In this document: piece after piece, positions 42 to 50,181 of the stretch | How the letters are laid out: every line of letters begins with the position of its first letter | How positions within the stretch are numbered: the first letter of the stretch is position 1 | Virus record (IMG/VR): IMGVR_UViG_3300021364_000009 | Span: 1-64,000 of that record | Source: a virus | Length of the DNA stretch: 64,000 bases | Direction: 5' to 3' (one strand) | Position numbers and translations under genes: made by a program | The notes under the pieces: generated by a model | Database searches by the model: none | Seen by the model: only the letters and a program-made list of their open reading frames with translations | What the model was told of the DNA's origin: nothing

Positions 42-392
42 ATGAGAAGAACAGCCACAGAGATACTAAGAGACTTAGAAATAAGAGTTGCTAGGCTTGA
101 AAAAGAGTCTTCACCGAAAGAGTATGTAGACCTTGATTATATAGAACAACTTGCTCGTCTGTTTGTACATCACAGCAGGGGAGTAAAGCTTGTTGAGAGG
201 AAAATGCAGAGAAATGGTCGTGAGGGGGTTTTCATACACCTTAAGAATGGTGGAGCAATCATTTATGAACTTCACATGGGTAATGGTCTTTTAGCGAAGA
301 CTCCAGATGGTCCGATTGGTTGGGGACGAGTTTCTTTTGATGGTATGAAAGAAGTACTGAAAAAAGATTTAGCTTTATATGCCAATAATTAA
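42..392 (+). CDS. Hypothetical protein with N-terminal [12 protein letters not shown] tag (putative internal virion protein)
   Basis: GGGAG RBS upstream; N-terminus nearly the same as that of the protein at 49333 ([15 protein letters not shown]). Confidence 0.7.
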
Positions 393-715
393 GTATTTCT
401 AAGAGTCTTACCTCTACACCACTTGGAGTCTTCAAGCGTCCAACATAACCTTTGACGACCCCTTTTGCGTTTAAGAGCTTTCTCAGCTTTCATAGCTTCA
501 GACCTGTTAGCGTATGTGCCGTAAGTACACATGAGCTTCCAAGGTCTATATTTAGAAGTATATTTGGCTCCGCCTCTTATTTCTCCGTTGTGTTGTCTCA
601 GTCTGCGATTAACGTCAGTAGTACAACCAACGTAGAAGAACCCTTCAGCAGGCTTCCCACTTGCAGTTTTTCGTGGTTGTTGGCTCTGAATTACATATAC
701 GACCCATTCGCTCAT
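389..715 (-). CDS. GIY-YIG nuclease, SLX1-like
   Basis: VVYVI...[30 protein letters not shown]; AAGGAG RBS favours the start at 715. Confidence 0.85.
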
Positions 716-769
716 TGATAGCTCCTTTATGCTCACTTATTATCAACCTTATCGTAAAGGAGTCCAAAG

Positions 770-1588
770 ATGGATAGAGAATTTCAGAGAGATATAGACG
801 GCTTTTATAGTGCAGTTAAAATATTCAAGCCAGAAAGAGTCATCTCTCAAGTAGAAAAAATGATCACAGATTATATCCAACGATGTAACTCGTTAGACCC
901 TTCGGTTGACTATCAGCTTTTCAAAAAAGTTGTAGATCGAGAATACTATCAGAAAAGAATCAACTTCTTAAAGAACTGGCTCTTAGAGAATGGACATCGT
1001 TACGATACTAGAAGAAATAAAGTCGTTCCTCTCACAACAGAAGAAAAGAAAAGAAATATCTTGAGAACAGCATTCTTAAGACTAAAAAAAAATTCCTCTA
1101 GCCGTCTAGGTCTTGAAGCTCTTGAAGTAGCTAAAGAGTGTTTGGGTTTAGGTGAAGAGGGTAAAAATAATACAGGTTGGTTTATAGATATGATACATGA
1201 AACCAACGAGACAGGTATGTGGTGTAGTGCTTTTGTAGGGTGGTGCTTTGAAGAAGCATGTCGTCGGCTTAATATCGAAATGCCTTTCGAGAGGAATAAA
1301 AGAGCAAAGGTTTTTTGGGAGAATGTTGTTTCTGTCGGAGAAATACCTAAGAATCCGATGCCAGGAGACATTATTCTTTGGGACAGGAAAGAAGAAGGTT
1401 CTCCTGATGGGCATATTGGTTTTGTGGAGTCCATTAAAAACGGGAAAGTGTACACTATAGAAGGTAATCGTCGCCCTGTACCAAGCACAGTTCGTAGGTT
1501 TTCTTACGATTTGAAAGATTTGCAAAATAAAGCAGACTGTTCTGATGGAGAGTTTCACTTATTTCTTAACTTTGGAAGAACTCCTTGA
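770..1588 (+). CDS. CHAP-type peptidoglycan hydrolase with N-terminal extension
   Basis: WCSAFVGWC (catalytic Cys), PMPGDIILWD, GHIGFV (His), TIEGN. Confidence 0.85.
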   Translation: MDREFQRDIDGFYSAVKIFKPERVISQVEKMITDYIQRCNSLDPSVDYQLFKKVVDREYYQKRINFLKNWLLENGHRYDTRRNKVVPLTTEEKKRNILRTAFLRLKKNSSSRLGLEALEVAKECLGLGEEGKNNTGWFIDMIHETNETGMWCSAFVGWCFEEACRRLNIEMPFERNKRAKVFWENVVSVGEIPKNPMPGDIILWDRKEEGSPDGHIGFVESIKNGKVYTIEGNRRPVPSTVRRFSYDLKDLQNKADCSDGEFHLFLNFGRTP

Positions 1589-1601
1589 ATAGTTTTTTTA
1601 T
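1589..1601 (+). promoter_or_regulatory. Putative late promoter element ATAGTTTTTTTAT
   Basis: Matches the recurring intergenic 13-mer; just upstream of the 1639 ORF. Confidence 0.45.
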
Positions 1602-1638
1602 TTGCTATCTTGTTTAGTTATTTTCACACGTCAAAAAC

Positions 1639-2388
1639 ATGGAGTCAAACATGAGCCTTACCAACAGAATTGCAAATTTGGTCGAACGTATTGACCGTCT
1701 TGAGAAAACCTCTTCTTTGTCCCCCAGACACCGTGACATTGTTACGATGAAGGGTCGAAAATCTATCGCACAACTCTTCGAGCTTGCCGAAGAGTTCTTG
1801 CAGATTGCTATCAACAAGGGTTTTCTTGGTGCTAAAATTCAAGAAGATAATGATTTTCCTGTTGTTGTTCTTGAGAGAGAAAAGTATGTATTCTTCAGAC
1901 CTACAGAATATGTTTTTGAGGTCGATGGTTCTTCTCGGAGCTACAAAAATTGGCGTGATATTATTAGCCGTTTGAGCCAAGAGCAAGGCTCGTTTGGTAA
2001 CGAAGAGGCTATGATGGACGAAGTTGAGATTATGCCTACTACCGAGGATATTCTCGAAATGCTAAGAGGAGCTAGAGACGGTGATGGCTTCATGGGAGAG
2101 AGATGGACAATCTCTTCAGACAATGGGAAGACTGCTCTTTTTGAGACTGCTACAGGCACAAATTCACTTTCTGTTACTTTAACCCCCCGTGGAATTAAGT
2201 TCTCTTTCACAGGACGCTTTGTAAAGCCAAGACAGCCTGTTGCTACAGTCAACGGCTTTATCAGAGAAGAAGGACGTGCAATGCAACTTCAGATGCTTGG
2301 TTACAAGCTTGATGAGATTGTCGGAAAAGCAGGGAAGCGTCTTCAGAAGTCTCGTATGAAAGCCTTGAAGGAAATGAAACTCGTTTGA
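1639..2388 (+). CDS. Hypothetical protein with N-terminal RIANLVERIDRLEKTS tag
   Basis: 249-aa ORF; tag resembles those at 42 and 49333. Confidence 0.7.
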   Translation: MESNMSLTNRIANLVERIDRLEKTSSLSPRHRDIVTMKGRKSIAQLFELAEEFLQIAINKGFLGAKIQEDNDFPVVVLEREKYVFFRPTEYVFEVDGSSRSYKNWRDIISRLSQEQGSFGNEEAMMDEVEIMPTTEDILEMLRGARDGDGFMGERWTISSDNGKTALFETATGTNSLSVTLTPRGIKFSFTGRFVKPRQPVATVNGFIREEGRAMQLQMLGYKLDEIVGKAGKRLQKSRMKALKEMKLV

Positions 2389-3492
2389 TTACCAGACTTG
2401 GAATAGAAGCCCTAAGCTGAGGGCTTGTTTTTCTGAGGAAACGAGATAAGAGATGTTGGGGGCGAAGTTTAAATATTTCCCCCCAATCTTTGGGTGGTAG
2501 GAAATAGAAGGTCCGACTCCGAAATAGTCTTTGGATATATATCCTACACCTCCTATTCTTAGTTTAGCTTCAAACAGGTTTACGAAGCTACCGCCCGCTT
2601 GTATTCCCATGTCGTATCCAAGAGTGGGAAGTAGACTTGTGCCAACATAGTAAGAAGGCTCATACCTTTTATATTTCTTACTGTGCCCATAAGGGACTGT
2701 AGGGACATAGAAAAATCTAGGGTCTAGGTTCGGGTCTCCTTCTATCAGCTTGTCTTCTACAAGAGTGACAAACTGCCCATCTTCAGAGAAATAACCTCCC
2801 TTGATGTATACTCCTTGGTTTTGGACTGCTCCGCTCCCTAGACTGTCTGGATCTTCTCCAAAGGTCAGTACATCTACCTTAAATACAAGGTTTAAATCTA
2901 ATTCCCCTGCTTCATCGAGCCAAAGGTTGCTTGTTCTAAACTGTGAGACAGGCTTCCCTTTGTTCTGATATTGCATAGCCCAAGTGTAAGAAATAGAAGG
3001 ACACTTGTCAGGGTCATAGTAATGTATGCAAGTTAAGAAGTCGTCTGCGTCTACACCTCTCCAATCTTGTGTAGGTTGTTTTACTTCTTTGGGTTTTTCT
3101 CTTCCTTCAACGCTTACTTTTATTTTCCCACCCGTTAAGGTCGTTTCGATCTGTGTAAACCTTGAAGAGTAAGAAAGAATCTGTGCATCTGTTTTCTTTA
3201 GGTGATCTTCTAGTGCTTGTGTTTGAGTACCTACCGCAGAAATAATCTGTTTGGTTCGCTTCTCCATTTCTTCATAGGAGATCATTTCAGACTTAGCAGT
3301 TTTTAGTTCTTTATCTAGTCTTGCTATTTCTTTAGCTTTCCCTTCCAACACACCTTTGAGTTGGAGTTGTATGGTGCTCTCAAACTTTTGTTGCTTGTAA
3401 TTGTTCCAAAACTGAAGAGCGGTTGAAAGAAATAACGTAAAACCTAAGACATATTTAGGTAATTCTGCGTATGAGAGTAAGTTTTTCCACAT
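2389..3492 (-). CDS. Membrane-anchored coiled-coil protein with C-terminal amphipathic beta strands (spanin-like candidate)
   Basis: Start MWKNLL after AAGGAG; N-terminal hydrophobic helix, coiled coil, alternating beta strands ending LSLGLLFQVW. Confidence 0.55.
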   Translation of the reverse strand: MWKNLLSYAELPKYVLGFTLFLSTALQFWNNYKQQKFESTIQLQLKGVLEGKAKEIARLDKELKTAKSEMISYEEMEKRTKQIISAVGTQTQALEDHLKKTDAQILSYSSRFTQIETTLTGGKIKVSVEGREKPKEVKQPTQDWRGVDADDFLTCIHYYDPDKCPSISYTWAMQYQNKGKPVSQFRTSNLWLDEAGELDLNLVFKVDVLTFGEDPDSLGSGAVQNQGVYIKGGYFSEDGQFVTLVEDKLIEGDPNLDPRFFYVPTVPYGHSKKYKRYEPSYYVGTSLLPTLGYDMGIQAGGSFVNLFEAKLRIGGVGYISKDYFGVGPSISYHPKIGGKYLNFAPNISYLVSSEKQALSLGLLFQVW

Positions 3493-3564
3493 TTTCCTGG
3501 CTCCTTTTCCCTTTTGACGATATATGTAGCATACAACAACACAGCACCGATAAAGGAGGTAAAA

Positions 3565-5016
3565 ATGTTGTATGATACAAATGCGTTGCTCGTAGGTGGA
3601 GAGTCTACCTACGCCACGCAGTTCAAGTTCAAAGCTATTAAGCATGGGATCAACATCAATGTTGCCCACCACATTGATTGGGATCAAACAAGGAAGTCGT
3701 TCCCAACTACAGGCGTAGATGTGGTCATTGTTCTTAAAGACGTGTGTAACCATATGCTCAGAGATTGGGCTTCTTCCGAAGCAAAGAAGAATAATCTTCC
3801 TTTTTGCGAGATTTCTCAGAAAATCTCGTTTGGGATTGCCCGTTTGCGTCAGACTCTAGGTATTGACTCAAAGACTAATGTCTCTTCTGTCGAGGATGAA
3901 GGAGATCATGTTTTCGTGCCTTCAAATGACACCTCTGAAGCTCTCCATGAAGTTCTCGAAGGCTATACTGAAGTCCTTGTCCCAAAAAGCAAAGCGGTCT
4001 TGGCAAGTAAGAAGAAGTACTTGACCTACCTTTCTAGGTCTCTTGTGAAGTTGTGTAAGCAAGAAGTCTCAGACTTTAAGGAGAGCCGATCTCTTGCGTA
4101 CAAAGAGATTGCCTTCCATGACTACGGAGTCTTGAGAGAAGAATATGCTTCTGTCCTCAAGTCAAAAAAGAGAGGCTATGTTGAGATTGAAGAGCTTGCG
4201 AGGAGCGTAATCATCTTAATGTCATTAGATGATATGTGGACGATCTTTGATATTAAGAGGACACTTAGCTTCGCACTAGGTTACTCCTTAACTAAGAAAC
4301 AGGAACAGGAAATAAAAGACATGAAGACGGACAGAACGTCTCTTCCTTTAGAATTGAAACCTATAGTTTCTGAGGTTCTTGAAAACCCGACACAGACTTT
4401 GGGCTTCTGTAGAACCTCAGAAGAGCGATTAGATATGCTCAACGCTTATCTAAGCTATCACTTAAATACGCAGATTTCAAAATCTCGTTTTGAGACAATT
4501 ATGGGTGTGCTTCAGGAGACGAGCAGAGACAGAAAGAATCTTAAAGCAGACTTAAAGCAAAAGCTTATTTCTGCCCGAGATAAATGGGCAAGACACTACT
4601 TGGAGCTAATTCAGCTAGGTGTGTTGGATGTTTCTAAATCTGAGTTCAACAAGGTGCATAAGCTGACTTGGGGCAGTCGTGTTTCAGACGCTGTAAGAAA
4701 AGAGATGTCTGATAACTCTCATACAGAAGCCCCTACGCAAAAAACGACCCAAGAGGAAACTGCTCCTGTAGTGGAAGCTCCTGTAGTGGAAACTCCTGTA
4801 GTGGAAACTCCTGTAGTGGAAACTCCTGTGGCTTTACAGGAGGTGGCTCAGAGTTTAGCTACAGTGCTTATCGGAGACTTGGAGCTTGAGATAGATGGTG
4901 CTCTTTCTATTAAAGAAGTAGCAGTGGGCACACAGATTAAAGTCTTAAGTGGTCAAAAGAAGATCACTATCGAGAGCTTTGATGGTAATGTTTTGAAGGG
5001 TGTGGTTATCAGCTAG
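3565..5016 (+). CDS. Protein with N-terminal DUF2325-like domain
   Basis: AAGGAGG RBS before ATG 3565; LLVGG...DVVIVLKDVCNH...AKKNNLPF pattern. Confidence 0.55.
   Translation: MLYDTNALLVGGESTYATQFKFKAIKHGININVAHHIDWDQTRKSFPTTGVDVVIVLKDVCNHMLRDWASSEAKKNNLPFCEISQKISFGIARLRQTLGIDSKTNVSSVEDEGDHVFVPSNDTSEALHEVLEGYTEVLVPKSKAVLASKKKYLTYLSRSLVKLCKQEVSDFKESRSLAYKEIAFHDYGVLREEYASVLKSKKRGYVEIEELARSVIILMSLDDMWTIFDIKRTLSFALGYSLTKKQEQEIKDMKTDRTSLPLELKPIVSEVLENPTQTLGFCRTSEERLDMLNAYLSYHLNTQISKSRFETIMGVLQETSRDRKNLKADLKQKLISARDKWARHYLELIQLGVLDVSKSEFNKVHKLTWGSRVSDAVRKEMSDNSHTEAPTQKTTQEETAPVVEAPVVETPVVETPVVETPVALQEVAQSLATVLIGDLELEIDGALSIKEVAVGTQIKVLSGQKKITIESFDGNVLKGVVIS
4762..4829 (+). repeat. In-frame 15-bp tandem repeat (about 4.5 copies; [A/T]PVVE linker)
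   Basis: [G/A]CTCCTGTAGTGGAA units at 4762, 4777, 4792, 4807 and a partial at 4822. Confidence 0.95.
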
Positions 5017-5029
5017 TGGGTTGAGTAGG

Positions 5030-5061
5030 TGAGGGAGGTTCTAGCCTCCCTCATTATATTT
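5030..5061 (+). terminator. Rho-independent terminator candidate
   Basis: TGAGGGAGG/CCTCCCTCA stem followed by a T-rich tract after the stop at 5016. Confidence 0.65.
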
Positions 5062-5137: not shown

Positions 5138-5716
5138 ATGAAAATAAGCGTTGAAGGGTTGATAGGGGTGGGCAAGTCTACTTTTGTCCGTCATTTTTGT
5201 CAGCAGACCTCTTACACTCCGTTGTATGAGTCTGTTTCAGACAATCCTTTTCTGTCACGGTTCTATGAAGACCCTAAACGCTGGGCTTTTACCCTTCAAA
5301 TGTATTTCTTGTATGATCGGTGTAAGAACCATACTGAGCAAGGCGACATACTTCTTGACCGTTCGATCTATGGTGACATTTGTTTTGCAAACATCTTACA
5401 CGATCAAGGCACATTAGACTCCGAAGAATACCATTCTTATATGAGTCATTTTAATCTTGTAGAGTCCTTTATCCCCAATCTTGACCTTTGTATTCATCTT
5501 CATATTTCAGAAGAGAAGGCTATGGAGCGAATTGCAAAAAGGAACAGGAGCTTCGAGTCTGACCTTCCGTTAGATTACTTACAGAGGCTTCAATATCAGC
5601 TTTTCAAGCTACCTGATCTTCTTCCTAAAGAGACAAAATACATCCGAATTGATTGGGGTGATATGGATGAAGAAGAAATAAGAGAAAAAACTCAGAGTAT
5701 TATTTCTTCCCTTTAG
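5138..5716 (+). CDS. Deoxynucleoside kinase (dNK family)
   Basis: ISVEGLIGVGKST P-loop, FYEDPKRWAFTLQMYFL, LLDRSIYGD, RIAKRNRSFE lid. Confidence 0.92.
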   Translation: MKISVEGLIGVGKSTFVRHFCQQTSYTPLYESVSDNPFLSRFYEDPKRWAFTLQMYFLYDRCKNHTEQGDILLDRSIYGDICFANILHDQGTLDSEEYHSYMSHFNLVESFIPNLDLCIHLHISEEKAMERIAKRNRSFESDLPLDYLQRLQYQLFKLPDLLPKETKYIRIDWGDMDEEEIREKTQSIISSL

Positions 5717-6566
5717 TGTTAGCAGGTGTCTGCCACTTCTTTGGGTACGGCTTCATTTTCTTAGGGTCTTTTTGACCTTGGTTGATGAGGTAGTATCTCT
5801 TATTTCTTTCACAATGAGGGCTGTTTGGCTCTTTATACTTGCAATAGATACTCCAAGCTAAAGCCCATGCCTTTGAAGTCTCGTAGTCTTCTTCCTCTTC
5901 AAAGTAGTGTGCTTTCTCAGTGACGTACTTAGGTACGTCTCTTTCTTTCTTCTCTGCAACTATGGTTTGTTCTGCATTTCGAGTAGGTAGAGAGTGGGTG
6001 GAATAACCCCCCCAAGACTTCTCATAGGAATTGAAAGCGAGTCTCAGATTATCTATGTCTCCTGCAAGGATTGTATGGTTATTGCTTTTTACCCACTGCT
6101 CAATGGCTCTCAGATACTCCCTCTCTCTCTTTTCATCTCTCTCATTTTGAACCTTTTCTAGCCACCTGTGAAAAAGAACTGTAGCTTTGTTTATTTTTCT
6201 CTTTTGAGAGGCGTAAATAGACCCATAAGGCTCTACGAGAAACCCTGAGTCATTCAAATATGCTTTACTTCCAGGGATATAAATACGAGCTAAGAATCCT
6301 TGTCCTGTTTGTTTTGTCCATACATTATGGTTTTGACCGACTTGGGTTAGAAGATCGGAAAGTTTCTCTATGTTTTCGATAGCTTCTTCTTTATCCCACT
6401 CTTTATTTCTTTTGCTTTCGTTTCGTTTCCACTCTTTATACTCAAGAGATTTGCTAAACTTGAATTCTAAAAATTCTCTACTGTCTGAATCAGTTAGATC
6501 AAAGGAATGCCCTAGTCTCTTTAAGTAAGCAGTTCTGACTATCTTTTTTAACTGTATATCACTCAT
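5700..6566 (-). CDS. Hypothetical protein (putative virion protein; KKIVRTAYL tag, AWALAWSIYCK motif)
   Basis: 288-aa ORF with RBS; divergent from the tail tube gene. Confidence 0.65.
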   Translation of the reverse strand: MSDIQLKKIVRTAYLKRLGHSFDLTDSDSREFLEFKFSKSLEYKEWKRNESKRNKEWDKEEAIENIEKLSDLLTQVGQNHNVWTKQTGQGFLARIYIPGSKAYLNDSGFLVEPYGSIYASQKRKINKATVLFHRWLEKVQNERDEKREREYLRAIEQWVKSNNHTILAGDIDNLRLAFNSYEKSWGGYSTHSLPTRNAEQTIVAEKKERDVPKYVTEKAHYFEEEEDYETSKAWALAWSIYCKYKEPNSPHCERNKRYYLINQGQKDPKKMKPYPKKWQTPANTKGKK

Positions 6567-8137: not shown

Positions 8138-8140
8138 TAG

Positions 8141-22648: not shown

Positions 22649-23860
22649 ATGATAAAAATAGCGAAAGCAGATGTGGACCCTATTCGGCAGCGATCTCAAT
22701 TTACCTGTGTGACAACTTCCACTTGCATGGCTCTCAATGCCCTTGGAGTAGTTTGTTCAGAAGATGACGTAAATAAAGTAATAGGTGCGAAGCCCATGCA
22801 AGGGGCGAGATGGGAAGAGGTTTTAGCTTGTGCTCAGTATTTTGGTGTACGAGCTACATTGACTATGCCTGCAACTCTTACACAAGTTAAACAGTGGACA
22901 GACGCAGGGAAGCCAGTGTTGATTGCATGGAACCCCGAAGGTAGAGATTGGAGCCATGCTAGTCTTATCTTTGATGTCACAGGGGAAAAAGGCAGTTACG
23001 AAGTGCATGTGGCAGACCCCAATATTCCAAACCCCGATAAGACGGTAAGGATTGTTGGCGAAGATGACTTCTATTCTAAGTGGTTTGAGAAGTGGCCTAA
23101 CTATTTAGTGAGAAGACCTGCTCTAATGTTAGAAAGAGAAATAACTTCAGACGGTAGGCAAGTCATGGCTAGTTCTAACGAGCATGTCGCTTCTAAATAC
23201 ATTAAGGACTTGCATGGTCATGAGTTTGGACCTCGCAGAGGTTTAGAAGGTCCTTTCCGTTTTAAGAATGGGCAAGTGCTTTATTATGACCGCAGTGAAA
23301 AAGGGGGTACTTACTATAACCCTCTTACAGACATGTATCTCACGCATGATGAAGCGTATCAAATCACAAGTGGTTATTCTAAGTCTGCTAACGCAGAGAC
23401 ACCAAACTTCTTCTCTGTTGTTAAAGAAATAACTTCTACTGTAAGGCATCTTGGCTATCTTATGACCTTTGACAGAGGGTCTTCAAAGATATGCACGAAA
23501 GAGCCGTACTTAGTGTTTAAAATCTCAGTTCCCGGCATTGGGCATTATTCTTTAGACTTTGAAAGAAATAATGCTTCCCTTTACGAGGGAGAAGAACTTT
23601 TGCAGTCTTTTAATGATGTTAAAGACTTTCCTGAGCTTCTAAGATTTCTTCCCAAACAGCTTTCGGACATGAGTTTGAAACCAAAAGTTAAAGAAATAAC
23701 CGTGGTAGATGAGCATACTGTAGAAGAAATAACAGAGCTTCTGAACTCAGACTTACCTAAAAGAGAGAAAGCTCTAGGTATCAAAGACCTGATCCCTGAG
23801 ACTAAAGATAGATTGAGCAAGACGGATCGTGCCTTAAGAGAAATGAACAAGTTTAATTAG
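22649..23860 (+). CDS. C39-like cysteine peptidase fused to further small domains
   Basis: RQRSQFTC (Gln, Cys), WSHASL (His), VADP (Asp); then HVASKYI tag and a GLEGPF..LYYD..YYNP domain. Confidence 0.7.
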   Translation: MIKIAKADVDPIRQRSQFTCVTTSTCMALNALGVVCSEDDVNKVIGAKPMQGARWEEVLACAQYFGVRATLTMPATLTQVKQWTDAGKPVLIAWNPEGRDWSHASLIFDVTGEKGSYEVHVADPNIPNPDKTVRIVGEDDFYSKWFEKWPNYLVRRPALMLEREITSDGRQVMASSNEHVASKYIKDLHGHEFGPRRGLEGPFRFKNGQVLYYDRSEKGGTYYNPLTDMYLTHDEAYQITSGYSKSANAETPNFFSVVKEITSTVRHLGYLMTFDRGSSKICTKEPYLVFKISVPGIGHYSLDFERNNASLYEGEELLQSFNDVKDFPELLRFLPKQLSDMSLKPKVKEITVVDEHTVEEITELLNSDLPKREKALGIKDLIPETKDRLSKTDRALREMNKFN

Positions 23861-27820: not shown

Positions 27821-28420
27821 TTAAATGCTCTCTATGAAAGACTCATATTCTTCTTTGGGTATGTTGTTTTCAGGTTGCTCAATCTTAATGAGGTGTCCGT
27901 AGAAAGGGATACCTAGTCCTTTACAGACTTCTTCGTATGCTTCTATGTTTTCTTTTCTGTCTTCCCAGAGATGGACACTTTTGACAGGAAGAGTGTTGAT
28001 CTTATTCAGCAGTACGCTGACTTTATACTCTATGCCCTCTAAATGTTTTTCTCTTAAGAATATCTCATCAAAGTCGATATTTCTAGCCGAGAGTATTTCT
28101 GCAATACGATACCTTAAACCTCCGTTGTCTTCTCTTGCTGTACATAGGATCGCCCATGTGTTTTGAGAGTTGATGGAAGTCATCGCCGCTTTAACGGTTT
28201 CAGGAATCCAATACTTGGAGCTTTGGGGGAAATCAGGTACGAAGGGTCTTCCTAAAGAAATAGAGTCTGACTCCCAAGCTCCATGTTCTACATAGTCCCA
28301 CCATTTTGGAGGAGGTGGGCTTTTAAACAACGTCCAATCAAAGTCATAGACGTGGAGACTCAGATTATCTGATGCTTTTTTTAGGAATTTAGTGGCTACT
28401 CTAGCTGTTTTCGTTCTCAT
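27821..28420 (-). CDS. HAD-superfamily phosphatase (Swiss-army-knife RNA-repair HAD-like)
   Basis: LHVYDFDWTLFKSP, ILCTAR, YK, LWEDR; N-terminal RVATKFLKKA tag. Confidence 0.8.
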   Translation of the reverse strand: MRTKTARVATKFLKKASDNLSLHVYDFDWTLFKSPPPPKWWDYVEHGAWESDSISLGRPFVPDFPQSSKYWIPETVKAAMTSINSQNTWAILCTAREDNGGLRYRIAEILSARNIDFDEIFLREKHLEGIEYKVSVLLNKINTLPVKSVHLWEDRKENIEAYEEVCKGLGIPFYGHLIKIEQPENNIPKEEYESFIESI

Positions 28421-33400: not shown

Positions 33401-33913
33401 ATGGGTGGTAGTTCCGCAGAGAGAGTGGCAAAGAAATACGCTTCTTCTATTAAGAATAAGAAGTTTTCTTTACCTATCTCATATGAAGAATATTATGAGA
33501 GAAGTAGCTTTGGTAGGCACTTATCTCTTCAGCTTCAATATGAGGGTTCTGATGTCGGAAATATCTCGGGCATCTTAGTTGAGACAAAAGACTTATCTTC
33601 TTATCAATGCAAGTCTGATATTCAAGCACTAGCAGAGAGCCACTCAACTACCTCTACAATCAGAGGTGATGTTCGGATTCTTACTCTAAATGAGTCTGAC
33701 TTGTCCGAGAGCTTTCGTGGTGTAGGTCTTGGGCTTCAAATGTACACTGAGTTTCTTCGTATTTTTTGGGATAAGGTGAAGAAGCCTTTTATTTTTATTC
33801 CTGATGCTTGTGAAGTGGGGCGTACATCACAAGATGCTAGAAGAGTTTGGAACTCACTTGCGAGAAATAAACCTTCTTCTAATCTTTGTATCGCAATATT
33901 AGAGAGACCTTAA
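33401..33913 (+). CDS. GNAT-like acetyltransferase
   Basis: FRGVGLGLQMY acetyl-CoA motif A; TSQDARRVWNSLAR; N-terminal ERVAKKY tag. Confidence 0.7.
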   Translation: MGGSSAERVAKKYASSIKNKKFSLPISYEEYYERSSFGRHLSLQLQYEGSDVGNISGILVETKDLSSYQCKSDIQALAESHSTTSTIRGDVRILTLNESDLSESFRGVGLGLQMYTEFLRIFWDKVKKPFIFIPDACEVGRTSQDARRVWNSLARNKPSSNLCIAILERP

Positions 33914-38325: not shown

Positions 38326-38880
38326 ATGAGAAAGAAAATTGCGAACGATCTGCTTAAGCCCTTAGAGACATATGGCAAGTATGAAGGTGTTTTAGAGTAT
38401 GACACATACACTCTTGGCGATGACTTGGGTGTCACCTTCTATGGTAATGGAGAACAGATCGGATATATTCGAGGACAGAAGCTTGACTATAAGAACTTCC
38501 AATCTTTGCAGAAAGTTAGAGATTGTTATCCCGATGTTGTGAACTTAGCAGAGATGGGTGGTAGTGATGTGTGTGACAGGAAAAAAGGAGTCTCCTGTCT
38601 TTTACCTAGAGTTTTCATGATTACAGACTCAGATTTAGATACGAACGACAATCAAGGAACCTCGCTAAGAGGCACAGGCATTGGTCGGATGATGTATGAA
38701 GCTATCTTCACAGAGTTTTATGAAGACCAAAAAAATAAGGATTTCATAGCTGTACCTATGAAATGTATTTTTGGTCGAAGCAGTACTTCTTCAGATGCTC
38801 AGAGAGTGTGGAACTCTCTTGCTAGGACATTAGAGTCTTCTAATGATCTTGTTCTTGTAGACAGACCTTTGATCTTTTAG
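38326..38880 (+). CDS. GNAT-like acetyltransferase (paralog of 33401)
   Basis: LRGTGIGRMMY; TSSDAQRVWNSLAR; AAGGAG RBS before ATG 38326. Confidence 0.7.
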   Translation: MRKKIANDLLKPLETYGKYEGVLEYDTYTLGDDLGVTFYGNGEQIGYIRGQKLDYKNFQSLQKVRDCYPDVVNLAEMGGSDVCDRKKGVSCLLPRVFMITDSDLDTNDNQGTSLRGTGIGRMMYEAIFTEFYEDQKNKDFIAVPMKCIFGRSSTSSDAQRVWNSLARTLESSNDLVLVDRPLIF

Positions 38881-39223: not shown

Positions 39224-40453
39224 TTAGACTCCAAAGAAATTCTCTTTAGCCCATTTAGGTTCAGGAGCTTCTCCTTTGCTCCAAACCCAAATAGGCTCAC
39301 CATAAACAGAACCACCTACTTCTCCCATCCTATCGCCAGGTCTTTTGTTCATCCTATACCCGATAACACCTTCATACGTTGCTCCTATTGACTCCATATA
39401 ACTCAACATAGGTTCACAGATAGAAGCATTTACATCGGTTCTTGAGTGTCCCTTATCTGCGATGTTGATTGCAATTCTCCCCCCTTGGACTAAGCTCTCC
39501 CAAGCTAGTTTTAAACTAGGTAGAAAAAACAGATCGAGCCATTCTTGGTTGGTTTTATATCGTTTCCAACTTTGTGTCTCTTCTTCAGAGTATTTCTCAA
39601 TGTTGAAATAAGGGGGAGAGGTAAATACAAAGTCGAACTTACGATCTCCAAGATCAGCATCTTCAGCGGGAGAGCAAATAAACTCTGTTTTCTTTCCTGT
39701 GTTGCAGAATTCAGAAATAGAGTTGTAGTGTGGGTGGAGCTTTGAGTTAGGGTCAATACCTACATAGCTCTCTGCGTTGGAAGCGTGGAACCCAACGAGT
39801 CTGTCACCCCAACCTGCGGAGAAGTCGATCACATTTTTAGCGTCAAAGAAATCGTAAAGTGTTTTTGCACATGAAGGTTTGAACTGAGACGCCATGTAGT
39901 TTCCTAATCTCAGACAATCTCTAAGTTGCTTATTTCCGACACCATTTTTCAAAGCGTCTTTCTCGGAAAGCGTCCAAAGAACTCTTAATACATATCGAGT
40001 CTTTGATTTGCATCCGTCTCTAGTCCATTCTCTCATCGGGCTTTTGTGCTCAAAATGAGCACACTTCATTCTTTCAATGTGTGTGTGCTGATCTGACACT
40101 TTTAAACCATGAGATGAAGATTGGAAGTAACACGGCTTATCTAAATATGTAGTGGGCACATCAGGGATGGTTCTTAGACAAACCCAATCTCCAATCTCTA
40201 TTTCTTTGCTCTCTTGTTTCAGACTATTAAAGTCTTTGTTTAGCTTATTGTGTGTGTATTTTCTTTCGGGGAAAGGTAGGTTATTTTCTTCTATCAGACT
40301 AGAAAGATGTTCGATTATTTCCTTCTTCTCGAAGTTATGTTTTATTTCACTCCAAATATGAGGGGGGATTGAAATCTCGTCTTTTTCTATAAGACTGTAG
40401 TCTGAGAGCTTTTTTGTTGTTTCTTTTTCTGCACTTAAATCAAATAATTCCAT
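39224..40453 (-). CDS. DNA amino-methyltransferase (N4-C/N6-A), array copy 4
   Basis: DFSAGWGDRL (motif I), FTSPPYF (motif IV). Confidence 0.88.
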   Translation of the reverse strand: MELFDLSAEKETTKKLSDYSLIEKDEISIPPHIWSEIKHNFEKKEIIEHLSSLIEENNLPFPERKYTHNKLNKDFNSLKQESKEIEIGDWVCLRTIPDVPTTYLDKPCYFQSSSHGLKVSDQHTHIERMKCAHFEHKSPMREWTRDGCKSKTRYVLRVLWTLSEKDALKNGVGNKQLRDCLRLGNYMASQFKPSCAKTLYDFFDAKNVIDFSAGWGDRLVGFHASNAESYVGIDPNSKLHPHYNSISEFCNTGKKTEFICSPAEDADLGDRKFDFVFTSPPYFNIEKYSEEETQSWKRYKTNQEWLDLFFLPSLKLAWESLVQGGRIAINIADKGHSRTDVNASICEPMLSYMESIGATYEGVIGYRMNKRPGDRMGEVGGSVYGEPIWVWSKGEAPEPKWAKENFFGV

Positions 40454-40455
40454 TT

Positions 40456-41634
40456 TTAAACTCCGAAGAAATTATCTTGTGACCATTTAGGTTCGGGGGC
40501 TTCTCCCTTACTCCATATCCAAATAGGTTCAGCAAAAGGCTTTTCTGTTTTCTGGCCGCCTCGTTGATAAAGTTCATATCCAATCGCACCTTCGTAGTGG
40601 GCGTTCAGTTTTTCCATGTGTTTGAGCATAGGCTCACATAAGTTTATGTTCTTTTTGTCATTGATATTAACACATACTCTCCCACCCTCAGATAAATGAT
40701 TCCAACATTTCGTTAGAGTTGGAAGCAAGAACCCCTCTAACCATTTTTCAGGTGTTGCGTATCGCTTCCAACTCTGTGTTTCTTCTTCAGAGTATTTCTC
40801 AATGTTGAAATAAGGTGGAGAGGTGAACACAAAGTCGAATACTCTATCTTCAAGATCAGCATCTTCAGCAGGAGAGCAGATAAACTCTGTTTTCTTTCCT
40901 GTGTTGCAGAATTCAGAAATAGCGTTGTAGTGTGGGTGGAGTTTAGTGTTTGGGTCTACTCCCACATAAGAAATAGCATTTGAGGCGTGGAAGCCAACGA
41001 GTCGATCTCCCCAACCTGCTGAGAAATCGAGTACATTTTTAGCGTCAAAGAAATCGTATAGCCATTTTGCAACCACAGGTCTAAACTGTTGAGCCATATA
41101 AGAGTGGCTCATGATTGCTCTCCTTAAAGTTTGACTATTGATGCCACCTCTAGTGTAAGGTTCATCGCTCCTAAAACCAAAGAAGCCTCTGAGGAAGTTA
41201 TTCTTTTTATCTGGATTTTGCCATTCATAGATAGGGGACTTACTCGAATGATACCCACAGTTCATTCTTACTATTTGAGTGTATTGGTCTGAGATAGTTT
41301 TTCCCCTATTATTTCCTGAAAATAATAGGTGTTGGTCTAAGTATTTATTCTCTAAGCCTCTTACTTGTCTTGGATTTTCCCACTCTATTTCTTTCAGCTC
41401 TATTTCTGACTGTTTTAGTTTCAACCAGTCTTTTTTAACTTCGCTTAGTTCATACTCTCGTAGAGGAAAAGGTAGCTTCTTTATTTCTTCTGATAGGTGT
41501 GCTTTTATTTCTTCTTCAGAGAAATAATGGAGCAAGTTATCCCATTCTTTTGTAGAGATATAAAGACGGTTCTCTATTACGGTAGAGTACTCTTCTATCG
41601 GTTTTTTGGGTTCTCGTTCTAAATCAAACAGCAT
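40456..41634 (-). CDS. DNA amino-methyltransferase, array copy 3
   Basis: DFSAGWGDRL, FTSPPYF. Confidence 0.88.
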   Translation of the reverse strand: MLFDLEREPKKPIEEYSTVIENRLYISTKEWDNLLHYFSEEEIKAHLSEEIKKLPFPLREYELSEVKKDWLKLKQSEIELKEIEWENPRQVRGLENKYLDQHLLFSGNNRGKTISDQYTQIVRMNCGYHSSKSPIYEWQNPDKKNNFLRGFFGFRSDEPYTRGGINSQTLRRAIMSHSYMAQQFRPVVAKWLYDFFDAKNVLDFSAGWGDRLVGFHASNAISYVGVDPNTKLHPHYNAISEFCNTGKKTEFICSPAEDADLEDRVFDFVFTSPPYFNIEKYSEEETQSWKRYATPEKWLEGFLLPTLTKCWNHLSEGGRVCVNINDKKNINLCEPMLKHMEKLNAHYEGAIGYELYQRGGQKTEKPFAEPIWIWSKGEAPEPKWSQDNFFGV

Positions 41635-42807
41635 TTAGACTCCAAAAAAGTTTTCTAATTTAAACTTAGGTTCGGGGGCTTCACCTTTACTCCATATCCA
41701 AATAGGTTCACAGAAAGTTCCGATTAAACCAATACCATTCCTCTTGTTGAGCTTGTAGCCAACTACACCCTCATAAGTAGCTCCCAACGACTCCATATGT
41801 TTCAACATAGGAGTACATATATCTTCACCTTTTTTATCTGCTATATTGATCGCTATTCGACCCCCTTCAACGAGACAACCCCAAGACTTACTAAGCATGG
41901 GAAATAGAAAGCCCTCTAACCATTTATCTGTAGTAGGATAACGCTTCCAACTCTGAGTGTCTTCTTCACTATATCTCTCTATGTCAAAGTAAGGTGGGGA
42001 AGTGAATACAAAGTCCACTTCAACCCCTGTAAGATCAGCATCTTCAGCGGGAGAGCAGATAAACTTAGTCTCTTTACCTGTATTACAGAAATTGCTGATC
42101 TCTTCGTAGGGTTGGTGTAGCTCAGAGTTAGGGTCTATCCCTATGTAGCTGATCGCATTAGAAGCGTGGAAGCCTACAAGTCGATCTCCCCAACCTGCTG
42201 AAGTATCTAACACTCTTTTCGCACCAAAGAAATCGTAGATAGTCTTAGCACATGAGGGCTTGAACTGACTCGCCATGTAGGTGTGCATTTTTAATGCTCG
42301 ATAAAGAGTGCTTTGGTCTATGCCTTTAGAGGCTAACTCGCTCTTGAGTATGCCGAACAAACACCTTAGAAATGAATTTTTTTTGTCGCAGTTCTCCCAT
42401 TCAAATACAGGAGCTTTCCCTGAGTGGTAGCCACATTTCATACGCATAATCTGAGAGTGTTGGTTAGACACTTTCAGACCATAATTACCACAGGTGAACA
42501 CTACAGGCTCACCTCTATAGAGTAAGGGTGTTTCTTTACTTTGTCGGGGGGCTAACCATGACTCTTTTGCGTAGCTTATTTCTTCTGCCTTTAGTTTTGC
42601 CCAGTCAGACTTAACCTCTTGTTCTGTGTATTCTCTAACAGGGAAAGGCAAGCCTTTGATTGCTTCGGCTAGTTGAGGCTTTATTTCTTGTTTCGAGTAA
42701 TGGTCTAGCATAGCCAACCATTGGCTAGGGGGGATTACTAGCTTGTCTCCTATTATTTTTATGTACTCTTGGAGAGGTTTCTTTTCAGTGGTGTAATCAA
42801 ATAACAT
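41635..42807 (-). CDS. DNA amino-methyltransferase, array copy 2
   Basis: DTSAGWGDRL, FTSPPYF. Confidence 0.88.
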   Translation of the reverse strand: MLFDYTTEKKPLQEYIKIIGDKLVIPPSQWLAMLDHYSKQEIKPQLAEAIKGLPFPVREYTEQEVKSDWAKLKAEEISYAKESWLAPRQSKETPLLYRGEPVVFTCGNYGLKVSNQHSQIMRMKCGYHSGKAPVFEWENCDKKNSFLRCLFGILKSELASKGIDQSTLYRALKMHTYMASQFKPSCAKTIYDFFGAKRVLDTSAGWGDRLVGFHASNAISYIGIDPNSELHQPYEEISNFCNTGKETKFICSPAEDADLTGVEVDFVFTSPPYFDIERYSEEDTQSWKRYPTTDKWLEGFLFPMLSKSWGCLVEGGRIAINIADKKGEDICTPMLKHMESLGATYEGVVGYKLNKRNGIGLIGTFCEPIWIWSKGEAPEPKFKLENFFGV

Positions 42808-42810
42808 CTC

Positions 42811-44007
42811 TTAAACTCCAAAAAAGTTTTCTAATTTAAACTTAGGTTCGGGGGCTTCACCTTTACTCCATATCCAAATAGGCTCACAAAACATAAGACT
42901 TGTGTCTCCCATGTTTTTTCCTGGTCTCGCACCCATCTCATATCCGATAACACCTTCATATGTAGCCCCTAGTGTTTCCATGTGTTTTAACATAGGCTCA
43001 CATATTTCTTCTCTCTGACCCTGTGTATATGCGTCTGCAATGTTGACACAAATACGCCCACCTTCAGATAAATGATTCCAACATTTCGTTAGAGTTGGAA
43101 ATAAGAAACCCTCTAACCATTTTTCCATTTTGGGGTATCGCTTCCAACTTTGTGTCTCTTCTTTAGAATATCTCTCCAAAGTGAAATAAGGTGGAGAGGT
43201 AAATACAAAGTCGAATACTCTATCTTCTAAATCAACGTCTTCTGCGGGAGAACAGATAAACTCTGTTTTCTTTCCTGTGTCACAGAATTCAGAAATAGCT
43301 TCATATTTTGGATGGAGTTTTGAGTTAGGATCAACACCCACATAGCTCTCTGCATTTGAGGCGTGGAAACCAACAAGGCGATCACCCCAACCTGCTGAGA
43401 AATCGAGCACATTTTTAGCGTCAAAGAAATCGTAGATTACTTTTGCAGACTGAGGTTTGAACTGAGAAGCGATGTAGCTTCTCATAGCTAAAGCACTCTT
43501 CAATGCTTTTGGTGTGACATCCTTATTGAACATCACAGGATTAAGTAAGAATTTGAGGAAAGACTTCTTTTCACTTGTCCATGCAGACCACGGTGAGCGA
43601 AACCTCTCATGCCCTACTTCCATTCTCTCTTCTTGTGTGAAAAAATCAGAAACAGAAGCCCCTATTCTCAGAGCTTGTGGCACATATAAAGATAGCTCTT
43701 TATACTGAGTAGGTATTTCTTCAGAGATACGCTTGCACGACCAACTTCCTTCTTGGACAGAGGCGTCTTTGCTTTGAAGTAAACTAAACTCGTTTCTTAT
43801 TTCTTCAAGGTTATATTCTCGGTATGGGAATTTGATTTTCCCTTCATCAATTAAAACGATCATTCTTTTCATTATTTCTTCGTTGCTGTACGAAGAAATA
43901 ATGTTTTGCCACAGACCTCTAGGTATGAATATTTTTTGGTCTATGCCAAATATTTCATTTTCATCTAAGAGGTTTGGTTTTTTTATTTCTAAGTCTTCAA
44001 ATAGCAT
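42811..44007 (-). CDS. DNA amino-methyltransferase, array copy 1
   Basis: DFSAGWGDRL, FTSPPYF; starts right after the helicase stop. Confidence 0.88.
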   Translation of the reverse strand: MLFEDLEIKKPNLLDENEIFGIDQKIFIPRGLWQNIISSYSNEEIMKRMIVLIDEGKIKFPYREYNLEEIRNEFSLLQSKDASVQEGSWSCKRISEEIPTQYKELSLYVPQALRIGASVSDFFTQEERMEVGHERFRSPWSAWTSEKKSFLKFLLNPVMFNKDVTPKALKSALAMRSYIASQFKPQSAKVIYDFFDAKNVLDFSAGWGDRLVGFHASNAESYVGVDPNSKLHPKYEAISEFCDTGKKTEFICSPAEDVDLEDRVFDFVFTSPPYFTLERYSKEETQSWKRYPKMEKWLEGFLFPTLTKCWNHLSEGGRICVNIADAYTQGQREEICEPMLKHMETLGATYEGVIGYEMGARPGKNMGDTSLMFCEPIWIWSKGEAPEPKFKLENFFGV

Positions 44008-47772: not shown

Positions 47773-47808
47773 ATGTCCTCCATTTCAGCATAGAGGACAT
47801 ATATAATA

Positions 47809-48282
47809 TTAAGGGAGGTTTTTGATGAAGATTTTGATCAGTTTCCTATAGGGTATACCGTTGGTGAGCTTTAGGTACTTGTGCTTTAAGAGATCGAAAG
47901 CCACGTTATCTAGTTCATTCTTGTCTTTTGTCTGCATATATAACTTTGCAGAAATAACGGGACTCCAATGAAGATAGACCCAGAGGGCCGCTCTTTTGTG
48001 GAGCCTGTTTATTTCTAGCTTTTGCTCTGTAGTTAATGTGCTCTCTAAGTCTCTTGAGTAAGATTTATCTTTGCTTTGATTGTGGTAGATAGTCCCAAGA
48101 TGAAAAAACTCACTGCTAATTCTTAGGAGCCTTGAGGAGATGCCATAGCCATTCTTCCACCTTCGGATAGCGATTATCCTGACTAAAGGGTCTTTAGTGT
48201 CCGAAAGAGTGTTGAGTATTTCTAAGATAGCTAAATTACAAGAATGCTCTAGCAGTTTCACAATTTTTCTTGTGTTGCTCAT
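47809..48282 (-). CDS. Hypothetical protein
   Basis: 157-aa ORF with AAGGA RBS. Confidence 0.55.
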   Translation of the reverse strand: MSNTRKIVKLLEHSCNLAILEILNTLSDTKDPLVRIIAIRRWKNGYGISSRLLRISSEFFHLGTIYHNQSKDKSYSRDLESTLTTEQKLEINRLHKRAALWVYLHWSPVISAKLYMQTKDKNELDNVAFDLLKHKYLKLTNGIPYRKLIKIFIKNLP

Positions 48283-48359
48283 AGTTTATTTATCCTTTTT
48301 CTATTCTTAGTCCGTTACCTGCTACCTAGTACAACTATAAACTTACTATTGGAGTCCTT

Positions 48360-48734
48360 ATGTTTAGAGACGTAAAACCTATCTTTGTAGAGAATTCAAA
48401 AGTCCCTGTCTTTCTCAGTCGGTTTGCACCGATAGAAATAAATGCGATCACTCTTTTCTTTCTCGTTTTCTCAAAGGGAGAAATATCTGAAGAAACAAGA
48501 AGACATGAGACGATCCATTTTCAGCAGTACTTAGAGACTTTTGTGGTGGGCTTCTTGTTGATTTATATTTTTGAATATCTTTACTCTGCACTTATCAAGA
48601 AGAAAGGTTTTAGTCGAGACTCATACCTAGCCATAAGATTTGAGCAAGAAGCGTGGACTCAAGATAAAGATGTAGACTACTTAAAAACACGGAAGCGTTT
48701 TTCTTGGTTGAATTACCCTCTCGGTGGAGAATAA
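48360..48734 (+). CDS. Small HExxH metallopeptidase-like protein
   Basis: RRHETIHFQQY and IRFEQEA; preceded by ATAGTTTATTTAT. Confidence 0.65.
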   Translation: MFRDVKPIFVENSKVPVFLSRFAPIEINAITLFFLVFSKGEISEETRRHETIHFQQYLETFVVGFLLIYIFEYLYSALIKKKGFSRDSYLAIRFEQEAWTQDKDVDYLKTRKRFSWLNYPLGGE

Positions 48735-48737
48735 TCT

Positions 48738-48860
48738 TTGAGTAGATATTATATCTTCCTGAAAGCTTCTGAGTCTTCAGACTTTACCTCCTTTTACTTG
48801 TTGGGCGTTTTGGTCTTAGTCATGGTGGCTCTAATTCTTTTAAATTTAAGAACAAAGTAA
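48738..48860 (+). CDS. 40-aa single-TM peptide (not in ORF track)
   Basis: GGAG RBS, TTG start, FYLLGVLVLVMVALILL hydrophobic helix. Confidence 0.4.
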   Translation: MSRYYIFLKASESSDFTSFYLLGVLVLVMVALILLNLRTK

Positions 48861-48880
48861 GTATTCTTCTTACCCCTTTA

Positions 48881-49231
48881 CTAAGCTAAGAAATATTTTA
48901 GAGAGCGGTAGTCCTTTGGGTGTATTTCTAAGTCAAAAACTTCAGAAATACTAACCCAAGCCCAATCTATACTCTCTTCATTTATTTCAGGCGTAAACGG
49001 CTCTTCTAAAATCCCATAGAAGAGTGTGTATGTTTTAGTGTTGTGGTGGTCTACTATTTTCAGAGTTTCGGGCACGTTGACTATTTCTTCGTTCATCTCT
49101 CTTATGGCAGTTTGGAATCTGCTCTCTCCCTTTTCTGTAGAACCTCCAGCACAGTTCCACATATGGTCTTTAGATCGCTTTAGAAGAAGAACTCTATTTT
49201 TACATGTGATCATGACACCAGCACCCATCAT
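48881..49231 (-). CDS. NUDIX hydrolase
   Basis: GGSTEKGESRFQTAIREMNEEI Nudix box. Confidence 0.9.
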   Translation of the reverse strand: MMGAGVMITCKNRVLLLKRSKDHMWNCAGGSTEKGESRFQTAIREMNEEIVNVPETLKIVDHHNTKTYTLFYGILEEPFTPEINEESIDWAWVSISEVFDLEIHPKDYRSLKYFLA

Positions 49232-49332
49232 CTTATACTCCTTTTATAGTTTATTGGGATAGAAACCCACACAGATCAAAGGCATAAAAAATGTACGACA
49301 AAAAAGCAGATAACTTTTCGGGGAGAAATAAA

Positions 49333-50181
49333 ATGTTAGAGAATACATCTACTGAACTACTTAGAGATTTAGAAATAAGGGTCGCATCTTTAGAGAGAGA
49401 AGCCTTGTTTGGGTTCAACCTTAAAGATATGGGAGTTGGTATTGTCAAAGAAAAAATTACTGAGTTCCTAAGTAAGATTCCTTACTTCAGAGAAATCGAG
49501 AGATTCTTTAAGCAGATTTTCAAAGGCATCCGTGATTTTGGAGACGCTAAGAAGAGAGCTAAAGAGGTTTTAGATTTTGGCAAAAGAAATAAAGAAGCTA
49601 AGAAATATCTCGACTTGGTATATAAAGAAGAGTCTTCTCTAAAAGGTCGGCTAAAACTTATTCTTTCTCATATAAAAGACTCGGAAGCACGTTCTAGTTT
49701 TATGCGTTCTGCAGCAGATACACTAGGACAAATGTTTGGCTATATGCTCTTAGCTTGGGCAATCCTAGAGATTCTTAGCAGTATTTGCGTCAAGTTGGGG
49801 ATTGTGAATTATGTTCTAGGTTTCTTAGGTGCAGGTGCGATTATTTTTGTAGTCGCATTTATACTTCTTTTCATGGTCGATTGGAGAGGGGCTGAAAAAG
49901 AGATTTCAGAAATTGACGCTGAAAGAAAAAAGAGAGAAATCCCAGAGGGCTATGAAGACCTTTTTGATGAATACGGTGATCTACTCCCCGGAATGACCTC
50001 CGAACTCCACAGAAGACAAGACGAAGATAGAATCAAAAGAGAGAGAAATAACCCTTTCTTTAGATCGGCAACGAGTCAAACAGCTAATCTTAAAAAGAGG
50101 GCTAGTTTTATACTCGATTATTGTCTTTCCGAGGAGCAAAAGAGAGCGAACCGTGTAGCCTCAAGATACCTTCTATCTTAA
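49333..50181 (+). CDS. Membrane-spanning putative internal virion protein with N- and C-terminal tags
   Basis: [15 protein letters not shown] at the N-terminus, two hydrophobic helices, C-terminal RVASRYLLS. Confidence 0.65.
   Translation: MLENTSTELLRDLEIRVASLEREALFGFNLKDMGVGIVKEKITEFLSKIPYFREIERFFKQIFKGIRDFGDAKKRAKEVLDFGKRNKEAKKYLDLVYKEESSLKGRLKLILSHIKDSEARSSFMRSAADTLGQMFGYMLLAWAILEILSSICVKLGIVNYVLGFLGAGAIIFVVAFILLFMVDWRGAEKEISEIDAERKKREIPEGYEDLFDEYGDLLPGMTSELHRRQDEDRIKRERNNPFFRSATSQTANLKKRASFILDYCLSEEQKRANRVASRYLLS

Follow-up and report, generated by a model that had tools for sequence, protein, structure and literature searches.

Short peptide tags on unrelated proteins of an uncultured jumbo-phage clade: candidate modular address labels linked by gene order to head genes

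The stretch of 64,000 nucleotides considered here, referred to as the window, forms the first two thirds of the linear virus record IMGVR_UViG_3300021364_000009 (96,571 bp), a contig making up roughly one third of a genome from a widespread, uncultured jumbo-phage clade. Several of its proteins, otherwise unrelated, carry one or both of two short motifs, T1 and T2, which were also found in relatives of this phage. Judged from protein sequences and gene neighbourhoods, T1 and T2 behave as modular peptide address tags: they are real, very numerous and under selection at the peptide level, and gene order ties them to the genes of the phage head. An earlier note, made from the letters of the window alone, had proposed a modular address label on unrelated cargo; this proposal is strongly supported, and on a bigger scale than the note had it, with 120 cargo clusters and the relatives of the phage included. 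As to function, capsid targeting in the manner of the capsid-targeting sequence (CTS) of phage T4 is the best-supported reading, by analogy and from genomic context, and we regard it as nearly evenly poised, with the balance slightly against it.

A T1 profile run against 1.84 billion representative proteins found the tag at the head of 1,126 protein clusters at E ≤ 1e-3. Its consensus spans 23 amino acids (aa), M-R-R-[TS]-A-S-E-[VI]-[IL]-R-[ND]-L-E-[MI]-R-[VI]-A-R-L-E-[KR]-Q-[AS], with looser positions at 10 and 14, and conservation ends sharply at residue 23. The rule proposed in the earlier note, by which tags are followed by a K/R-x-A/S cleavage signal, was not conserved: only [KR]-Q-[AS] is kept after the T1 helix, and nothing beyond it. 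T1 starts the protein, at residue 1, in 145 of the 149 best profile matches, and 143 proteins drawn from these matches fall into 120 cargo clusters. A word search restricted to the tag also placed it at residue 1 of differing bodies, such as a JmjC/cupin enzyme, a WGR protein and orthologues of gene 1639. Scanning IMG/VR yielded 31 loci with T1, many of them holding two to five tagged genes, with 43 distinct tagged proteins in 40 cargo clusters; in these, the start Met lies exactly ten residues ahead of D-L-E. T1 genes form tandem arrays in relatives. Near-complete genomes of the clade measure 275-376 kb, and T1 genes number 32 in a complete record of 376 kb, 17 in one of 290 kb and 12 in one of 275 kb; by profile, there are three in a close relative and three in the present contig. 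T1 cargo is almost entirely unrelated and unannotated: the 43 IMG/VR proteins gave no Pfam or PHROG match other than WGR and one membrane domain, and about 10 % of T1 cargo has membrane segments.

Hydrophobic residues of T1 lie at heptad spacing (5, 8/9, 12, 16, 19 and 23), its two L-E pairs are seven residues apart, and the linker that follows is rich in Ala, Ser and Gln. T1 may thus be described as a predicted N-terminal amphipathic helix of 23 residues with coiled-coil spacing, which a short Ala/Ser-rich linker would connect to any small protein. Invariant residues (Ala, Ser, Leu, Arg and Glu) are each encoded by two to five different codons, and third-position identity is 52 % vs 79 % at codon positions 1 and 2. 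This free synonymous variation at invariant residues indicates selection on the peptide, and T1 as a DNA or RNA element was ruled out on the same ground.

T1 was not found by tblastn in 50,697 phage records (INPHARED collection, which should include T4-type phages), nor in the genomes of 185,579 prokaryote species of GTDB. No tag model exists in Pfam or PHROGs, and a literature search with the tag strings found no mention of them.

All tag strings quoted in the earlier note were present in the window. The shuffled controls, a comparison that the note had set beforehand, gave within-protein expectations of 0.01 for the strict T1 pattern, observed three times, and 0.28 for the strict T2 pattern, observed seven times, four of them in one repeat protein. 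Both patterns were written post hoc, after the data had been seen, and giant structural proteins can contain exact 7- to 8-mers such as ASRYLLS by coincidence, for which reason the tags had to be tested on other genomes. In the contig, a T1 profile made from sequences of other phages recovered three places (42-113, 49351-49407 and 26682-26729). The type 1 tag of the note thus proved real and, with its 1,126 clusters, far larger than noted. The T1 features of the window are as follows.

42-110, plus strand: canonical T1 of 23 aa at the N-terminus of gene 42-392 (116 aa); T1 profile E 3e-16.
1657-1716, plus strand: decayed T1 at the N-terminus of gene 1639-2388 (249 aa); canonical T1 in orthologues.
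26682-26729, plus strand: internal T1 (second half) of gene 25701-27449, between the Zn-peptidase-like half and the WGR half; T1 profile E 7e-3.
49351-49407, plus strand: T1 without the MRRTAS start, near the N-terminus of the membrane protein gene 49333-50181; T1 profile E 4e-8.

In an all-against-all short alignment, the N-termini of genes 42 and 49333 matched over 19 residues with 79 % identity and 49 bits, and this pair was the only short inter-protein match exceeding shuffled proteomes. The two tags are 79 % identical as protein but merely 65 % as DNA. Residues 1-20 hardly vary among gene 42 homologues of about 60 % identity, and an unrelated protein of 96 aa (P0005) begins with the same T1. 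The AlphaFold2 model of gene 42 has a helix at 5-22, a linker and a compact alpha/beta domain, the fold of which bears a weak, frataxin-like resemblance (E 0.02). Gene 1639 was not recovered by the T1 profile search of the contig. Its N-terminus is read as a decayed T1 because a canonical T1 occupies this position in orthologues (P0014, P0015, P0018 and L010:18542); it is degenerate as well in the closest relative, which is an 84-kb IMG/VR contig with about 75 % protein-level identity. The membrane protein gene 49333-50181, which carries both tags, is missing from the closest relative. The earlier remark that the tags had not been seen in the replication proteins was borne out: no score of the T1 and T2 profiles rose above noise in the polymerase, helicases, methylases or topoisomerase.

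The tags move between proteins. The WGR protein of the closest relative and P0020 is standalone with T1 at its N-terminus; in gene 25701-27449 of the window a peptidase-like domain is fused in front, and T1 is now internal. Members of one GNAT-like family carry T2, T1 or no tag, and a paralogue of gene 33401 in the relative has T1 in place of T2. A second, partial copy of T1, R-[VT]-A-R-L-E-[KR]-Q-[AS]-S, stands between two halves in 13 of the 149 best T1 proteins, and in others of this set whole tagged units are fused in tandem. Most domain assignments of the earlier note stood, namely CHAP, C39-like, HAD, WGR (Pfam E 2e-8) and the membrane protein. The Zn-peptidase call of gene 25701 is weak (an ATLF match and an HExxH string), and the two GNAT calls found no Pfam match, the GNAT-like genes showing a weak profile match to E. 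coli YjdJ (E 0.03). A separate case is P0026, a metagenomic protein of 1,639 aa with at least eight exact repeats of 123 residues, each of which has the T1-half-like R-V-A-F-L-E-K-R-S-S beside H-V-A-S-Y.

T2 is a real short motif, weaker than T1, with the consensus [ST]-A-x-[RK]-[VI]-A-x-x-[YF]-[LM] across relatives, where it occurs at N-termini, in interiors and 11-14 residues from the C-terminus. It would form a helical motif of about ten residues at N-termini, C-termini and domain junctions. The T2 profile was seeded solely from distant relatives, and the shuffle maximum was 3.9. Supported, unsupported and uncertain instances in the window are as follows.

28370-28420, minus strand: N-terminal T2 of 17 aa, HAD phosphatase gene 27821-28420; T2 profile score 12.3.
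33401-33454, plus strand: N-terminal T2 of GNAT-like gene 33401-33913; score 7.8.
50140-50178, plus strand: C-terminal T2 of the membrane protein (49291), gene 49333-50181; score 7.4.
24654-25691, plus strand: charged repeat protein with T2-like motifs; repeats score about 4.5.
24669-24689, plus strand: N-terminal DIFDKIAxxYL motif of the repeat protein; kept in the L004 and L024 homologues.
24876-24896, 25122-25142 and 25305-25325, plus strand: three DxxDRIASEFISE repeats of gene 24654; about 4.5 each.
23183-23203, plus strand: HVASKYI in the C39-like peptidase gene 22649-23860, unsupported as a tag; score 3.1, within the shuffle range.
38335-38355, plus strand: KIANDLL at the N-terminus of GNAT-like gene 38326-38880, unsupported as a tag; not among the T2 profile matches.
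1055-1090, plus strand: RTAFL-type motif at the junction before the CHAP domain of gene 770-1588; T2 membership uncertain.
6513-6548, minus strand: N-terminal RTAYL-type motif of gene 5700-6566; string present.

The HAD protein gives the strongest T2 case. In its homologues down to 47 % identity the residues M1, R2, A6, R7, V8, A9, K11, K14 and S17 are invariant, the tag M-R-T-x-T-A-R-V-A-x-K-x-x-K-x-x-S precedes the catalytic DxD strand, and its codons differ from those of the relative by ten synonymous and three non-synonymous changes. AlphaFold2 places a helix at 2-15, ahead of the first strand. The tag of gene 33401 is kept as RVAEKFS in the relative. T2 of the membrane protein begins nine residues from the C-terminus, a position similar to that in the large head-operon protein of relatives (13-14 residues). 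C-terminal instances numbered six vs 1.0 expected, from three independent families, a count that is inflated since the instances are orthologues within these families. The type 2 list of the earlier note thus stood for the HAD protein, gene 33401, the C-terminus of 49333 and the repeats, and fell for 22649 and 38326, which are at chance level and not conserved: HVASKYI is absent from the 22649 orthologue of the closest relative, where a different insert is found, and the orthologue of 38326 there is without the KIANDLL N-terminus. The N-terminal KIANDYL of 24654 also scored at noise level (1.9).

The RTA[YF]L variant that had been reported in 6566 and 770 is present as a string and is loosely kept in the closest relative (RNAYL, RVACF). 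Where gene 5700-6566 has RTAYL, the closest relative has RNAYL and L024 has RLAYL; this N-terminal motif is specific to its family and of uncertain kinship to T2. The CHAP domain of gene 770-1588 occupies aa 148-233. The homologue in the closest relative, a protein of 588 aa with T2 at its start, has no CHAP domain and ends 13 residues past the equivalent motif, which implies that CHAP was added after the motif in the window.

The head genes of the clade were studied in relatives. In several of these a large protein of about 1,070-1,250 aa, ending in T2, is followed by a prohead protease and an acidic, scaffold-like protein of 600 aa, which contains T2. After these come a 210-aa protein, the 291-aa major capsid protein and then T1 genes. 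The protease, three genes upstream of the capsid gene, was recognised by a match to phrog_18299 (9e-16). The major capsid protein is HK97-type, matching phrog_2522 (2e-50) and, weakly, Pfam Phage_capsid. In each of the three big genomes the large head protein has T2 at its end; a search with this protein, possibly the portal, gave no match in PDB sequences or the ESM Atlas. At 49 capsid loci the sequence reached far enough downstream for a count: 23 have a T1 gene less than 3 kb behind the capsid gene, on its strand, and no locus has one upstream. The capsid protein is 91-100 % identical across the best 80 of 577 IMG/VR loci (L041-L120), including records of 275-376 kb. The genes that flank it are 40-76 % identical, with a range of 37-76 % for the protease, scaffold-like protein and large head protein; no other neighbour matches T1 in conservation as the capsid protein does. 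Its sequence (L027:4368-5243; G001-G003) is unusually frozen in its own right.

A promoter-like motif, [AG]TA-N5-T[TC]TAT, was found at -51 to -74 of 24 of the 43 T1 genes vs 20 % of all open reading frames (ORFs). The same motif precedes the first gene of the head operon (L031) and the baseplate operon of this phage. Over positions 718-66688 there were 51 copies where 52 were expected, thus no overall excess; 21 of the 51 lie within 150 nt upstream of a gene start on the same strand, including tagged genes and the baseplate operon.

718, 1589, 6582, 28450, 32981, 38270, 49235 and 56759: examples of copies of the promoter-like motif, pattern [AG]TA-N5-T[TC]TAT.

Three further observations concern the head genes. 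The first 28 residues of the repeat protein (24654-24737) resemble the N-terminus of the capsid protein of the clade (L027:4368-4500), with K-I-x-x-D-Y-[LI] and T-Q-P-L-R-L-R-R-D-Y in common, which suggests that the repeat protein may mimic the N-arm of the capsid protein or have a scaffold-like role. In L029 (2449-5061) the prohead protease is split by an intein with a LAGLIDADG domain, so that it measures 870 aa vs 465 aa; the insertion is at the conserved S-M-G-C/S-V-D site, which is probably catalytic. A free-standing gene for a LAGLIDADG homing endonuclease lies between the capsid gene and the first T1 gene in L015 (8968-9879).

Because the peptide is so conserved on so many unrelated proteins, one shared partner is likely, and docking to such a common partner is what we infer. 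Gene order, the promoter motif, T2 on head proteins and an equally frozen capsid protein are the reasons why this partner points to the prohead. By means of the tags, their bearers would then attach to one slowly evolving component of the prohead during its assembly, either the inner surface of the capsid or the core or scaffold, and the tagged proteins would be enclosed with the DNA and carried to the next host. The end of T1, R-[VI]-A-R-L-E-[KR]-Q-[AS], which recurs between domains, may be the place where the prohead protease trims. A partner in the prohead, cleavage of the tag and injection of the cargo are together a speculative scheme. In a bolder form, T1 might be a universal cargo-loading code, its helix docking to the 291-aa capsid protein or to a bound core protein much as encapsulin cargo does; we hold this form, again by analogy, to be possible and clearly less probable than capsid targeting as such.

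Several observations weigh against packaging in the head. The 23 capsid-adjacent loci include closely related ones and amount to about 15 independent lineages, and in the big genomes the majority of T1 genes are dispersed at a distance from the capsid gene. The 96,571-bp contig lacks the head module, and the tagged genes of the window have replication and accessory genes around them. To package thirty-two species per genome would be a lot, though about 50 proteins are found in SPN3US heads. No obvious need for injection can be seen for the HAD phosphatase, the cupin hydroxylase or the WGR protein. The isoelectric points of T1 cargo show no shift and no bias to basic values. Finally, the end of T1 does not fit the L/I-x-E rule of T4, and the phiKZ-type A-x-E rule fits at residues 5-7 only.

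The system that T1 recalls most is that of T4, in which the internal proteins IPI-III and Alt have an N-terminal CTS of 10-20 residues that is removed by the prohead protease (Mullaney and Black 1996, via PMC5694885). In common with it, the clade has a short N-terminal peptide shared by unrelated small proteins (three in the contig, 12-32 per large genome) and transferable between cargo, variable gene arrays, and, in relatives, a prohead protease gene and linkage to the head genes; the head module lies outside the contig. T1 differs in being longer (23 aa), in its predicted coiled-coil-type helix and in an end that is not L/I-x-E. In the stretch A-R-L-E-[KR]-Q-[AS], E20 agrees with neither protease rule; A-S-E at 5-7 agrees with the phiKZ-type one. 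No ordered similarity was found between the T1 or T2 consensus and the T4 CTS. The scale in the clade is larger, with up to 32 genes per genome and 1,126 clusters, and there is a second motif, T2, at C-termini and junctions; packaging is, for this clade, a prediction.

The heads of phiKZ-like giant phages (SPN3US, 201phi2-1 and phiKZ) contain dozens of proteins, and propeptides are thought to lead proteins to the prohead and to be removed by the prohead protease (PMC5694885, PMC7411985, PMC10052503). SPN3US ejection proteins have propeptides, and the mature part of one is transmembrane (PMC5694885). Most of these propeptides are long (79 to more than 160 aa), and sharing is confined to paralogues, without a universal tag. 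The cleavage rule in those phages is A/S/G-x-E, and the present clade, with its small HK97-type capsid protein of 291 aa, is not phiKZ-like. The likeness of the tags to the T4 CTS and to giant-phage propeptides is one of analogy, not homology.

Encapsulins and bacterial microcompartments use a short terminal peptide or amphipathic helix, followed by a flexible linker, to dock diverse enzymes to the interior of the shell, and encapsulin shells have the HK97 fold. The helix-linker-globular domain architecture predicted by AlphaFold2, together with an HK97-type capsid protein, resembles this arrangement, and the co-conservation of T1 and the capsid protein hints that the one may dock to the other. 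Encapsulin and microcompartment peptides differ in that they serve cellular compartments with one or few cargo types and have another consensus, whereas the shell of the clade is a DNA-filled virion. HK97-type prohead proteases and herpesvirus scaffold proteins bind the capsid protein by short C-terminal tails. T2 resembles these in its location within the last 9-14 residues of a head-operon protein; it bears no sequence relation to them and works at N-termini and inside proteins as well.

The extreme conservation of the tags on many cargo types implies one partner without naming which, and T1 and T2 might dock to a hub other than the prohead: the tail or baseplate, a membrane or replication compartment, a phage chaperone or a host factor. 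The dispersal of most T1 genes outside the head module, the adjacency of the tagged genes of the window to replication genes and the membrane segments in a tenth of the cargo would all suit such a hub. The T1 arrays behind the capsid gene in about half of the loci, the presence of T2 on head-operon proteins themselves, the promoter-like motif common to the head and baseplate operons, and the lack of T1 and T2 on the recognised baseplate proteins argue the other way. This alternative deserves to be kept in mind, at a probability somewhat under that given to the universal code.

T1 could also be a self-associating coiled coil, oligomerising its cargo or bundling the tagged proteins, with no separate receptor. 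The heptad-spaced hydrophobic residues and paired L-E, the isolated helix predicted by AlphaFold2 and the frequency of LExRVxxLE-like strings in coiled coils (one false positive was a repeat protein) agree with this. Plain oligomerisation would not need 16 of 20 residues fixed over 1,126 clusters of freely diverging cargo, the initial M-R-R-T-A-S among them, and would leave the strict N-terminal position and the linkage to head genes unexplained; self-association is accordingly improbable.

Marginally less probable still is a role of the tags as regulatory N-terminal peptides by which an entire class of accessory proteins would be turned on or off jointly, for example as a degron, a site of timed proteolysis or a translation-level control. 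The location of the tag exactly at the start codon, the strong preference for AGA-AGA at codons 2-3 and the shared upstream motif could be so understood, and internal half-tags could be protease sites. The synonymous variation, however, shows that it is the peptide, and not the messenger RNA, that is conserved over 20 codons, and one would not look for a degron at the C-terminal end of the large head-operon protein or within the scaffold-like one. Chance or compositional matches picked by eye, the verdict for 22649 and 38326 in the T2 list and for the exact look-alikes of 7-8 residues in large structural proteins, have a negligible probability as a general explanation and were ruled out for T1 and the core T2 instances by profiles, shuffles and conservation: T1 profile E-values reach 1e-16 per genome, with 1,126 clusters and the tag at residue 1, and for T2 the HAD tag residues are invariant at 47 % identity and the C-terminal position in the head protein is the same in every genome checked.

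The contig itself codes for a family A DNA polymerase, a DnaB-like helicase, an SNF2 helicase, a type IB topoisomerase, a deoxynucleoside kinase and baseplate proteins. Immediately after the helicase lie four tandem paralogous DNA methylase genes of about 400 aa each (39224-44007). No capsid, portal or terminase gene was recognised on the 96,571 bp. The completeness of the record was estimated at 31 %, and as no terminal repeat was found at its ends the genome is incomplete; proteins of the window occur as well on a contig of 247.5 kb. No close relative was found among GenBank phages (50,697 phage records, by megablast and tblastn), and the best outside match was a DnaB, with 46 % identity, in a 485-kb uncultured phage. 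The huge-phage clade that encodes bS21 was considered as the home of this phage and rejected, no S21 gene being present in five records. Two ORFs, 2389-3753 (minus strand) and 3514-5016 (plus strand), overlap on opposite strands. A counterpart in the closest relative exists only for the latter, whose N-terminus is DUF2325-like, and ORF 2389-3753 may therefore not be a gene over its whole length. The block 49291-51838, comprising the tagged membrane protein and proteins of 410 and 123 aa, was compared with L006 and L028; in the closest relative the 410-aa/123-aa block sits elsewhere, adjoining the gene 42 homologue, without the membrane protein, which indicates rearrangement of accessory cassettes.

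In conclusion, if T1 is a head-loading signal, a string of 23 residues would reveal, from metagenomes alone, the full set of proteins injected by common giant phages. The delivered set would comprise more than 1,000 families of unknown function, prime candidates for anti-defence and host-takeover factors, and T1 would be the first general sequence-defined packaging code outside T4 and could be a practical handle for loading foreign proteins into phage heads. Should the code be universal, 5-8 % of the genes of these jumbo phages would encode proteins shipped in the head, which would explain why the tag and the capsid protein are both frozen in sequence. Even with another partner, one peptide governing the fate of 5-8 % of the proteins of a genome would be an organising principle worth knowing.

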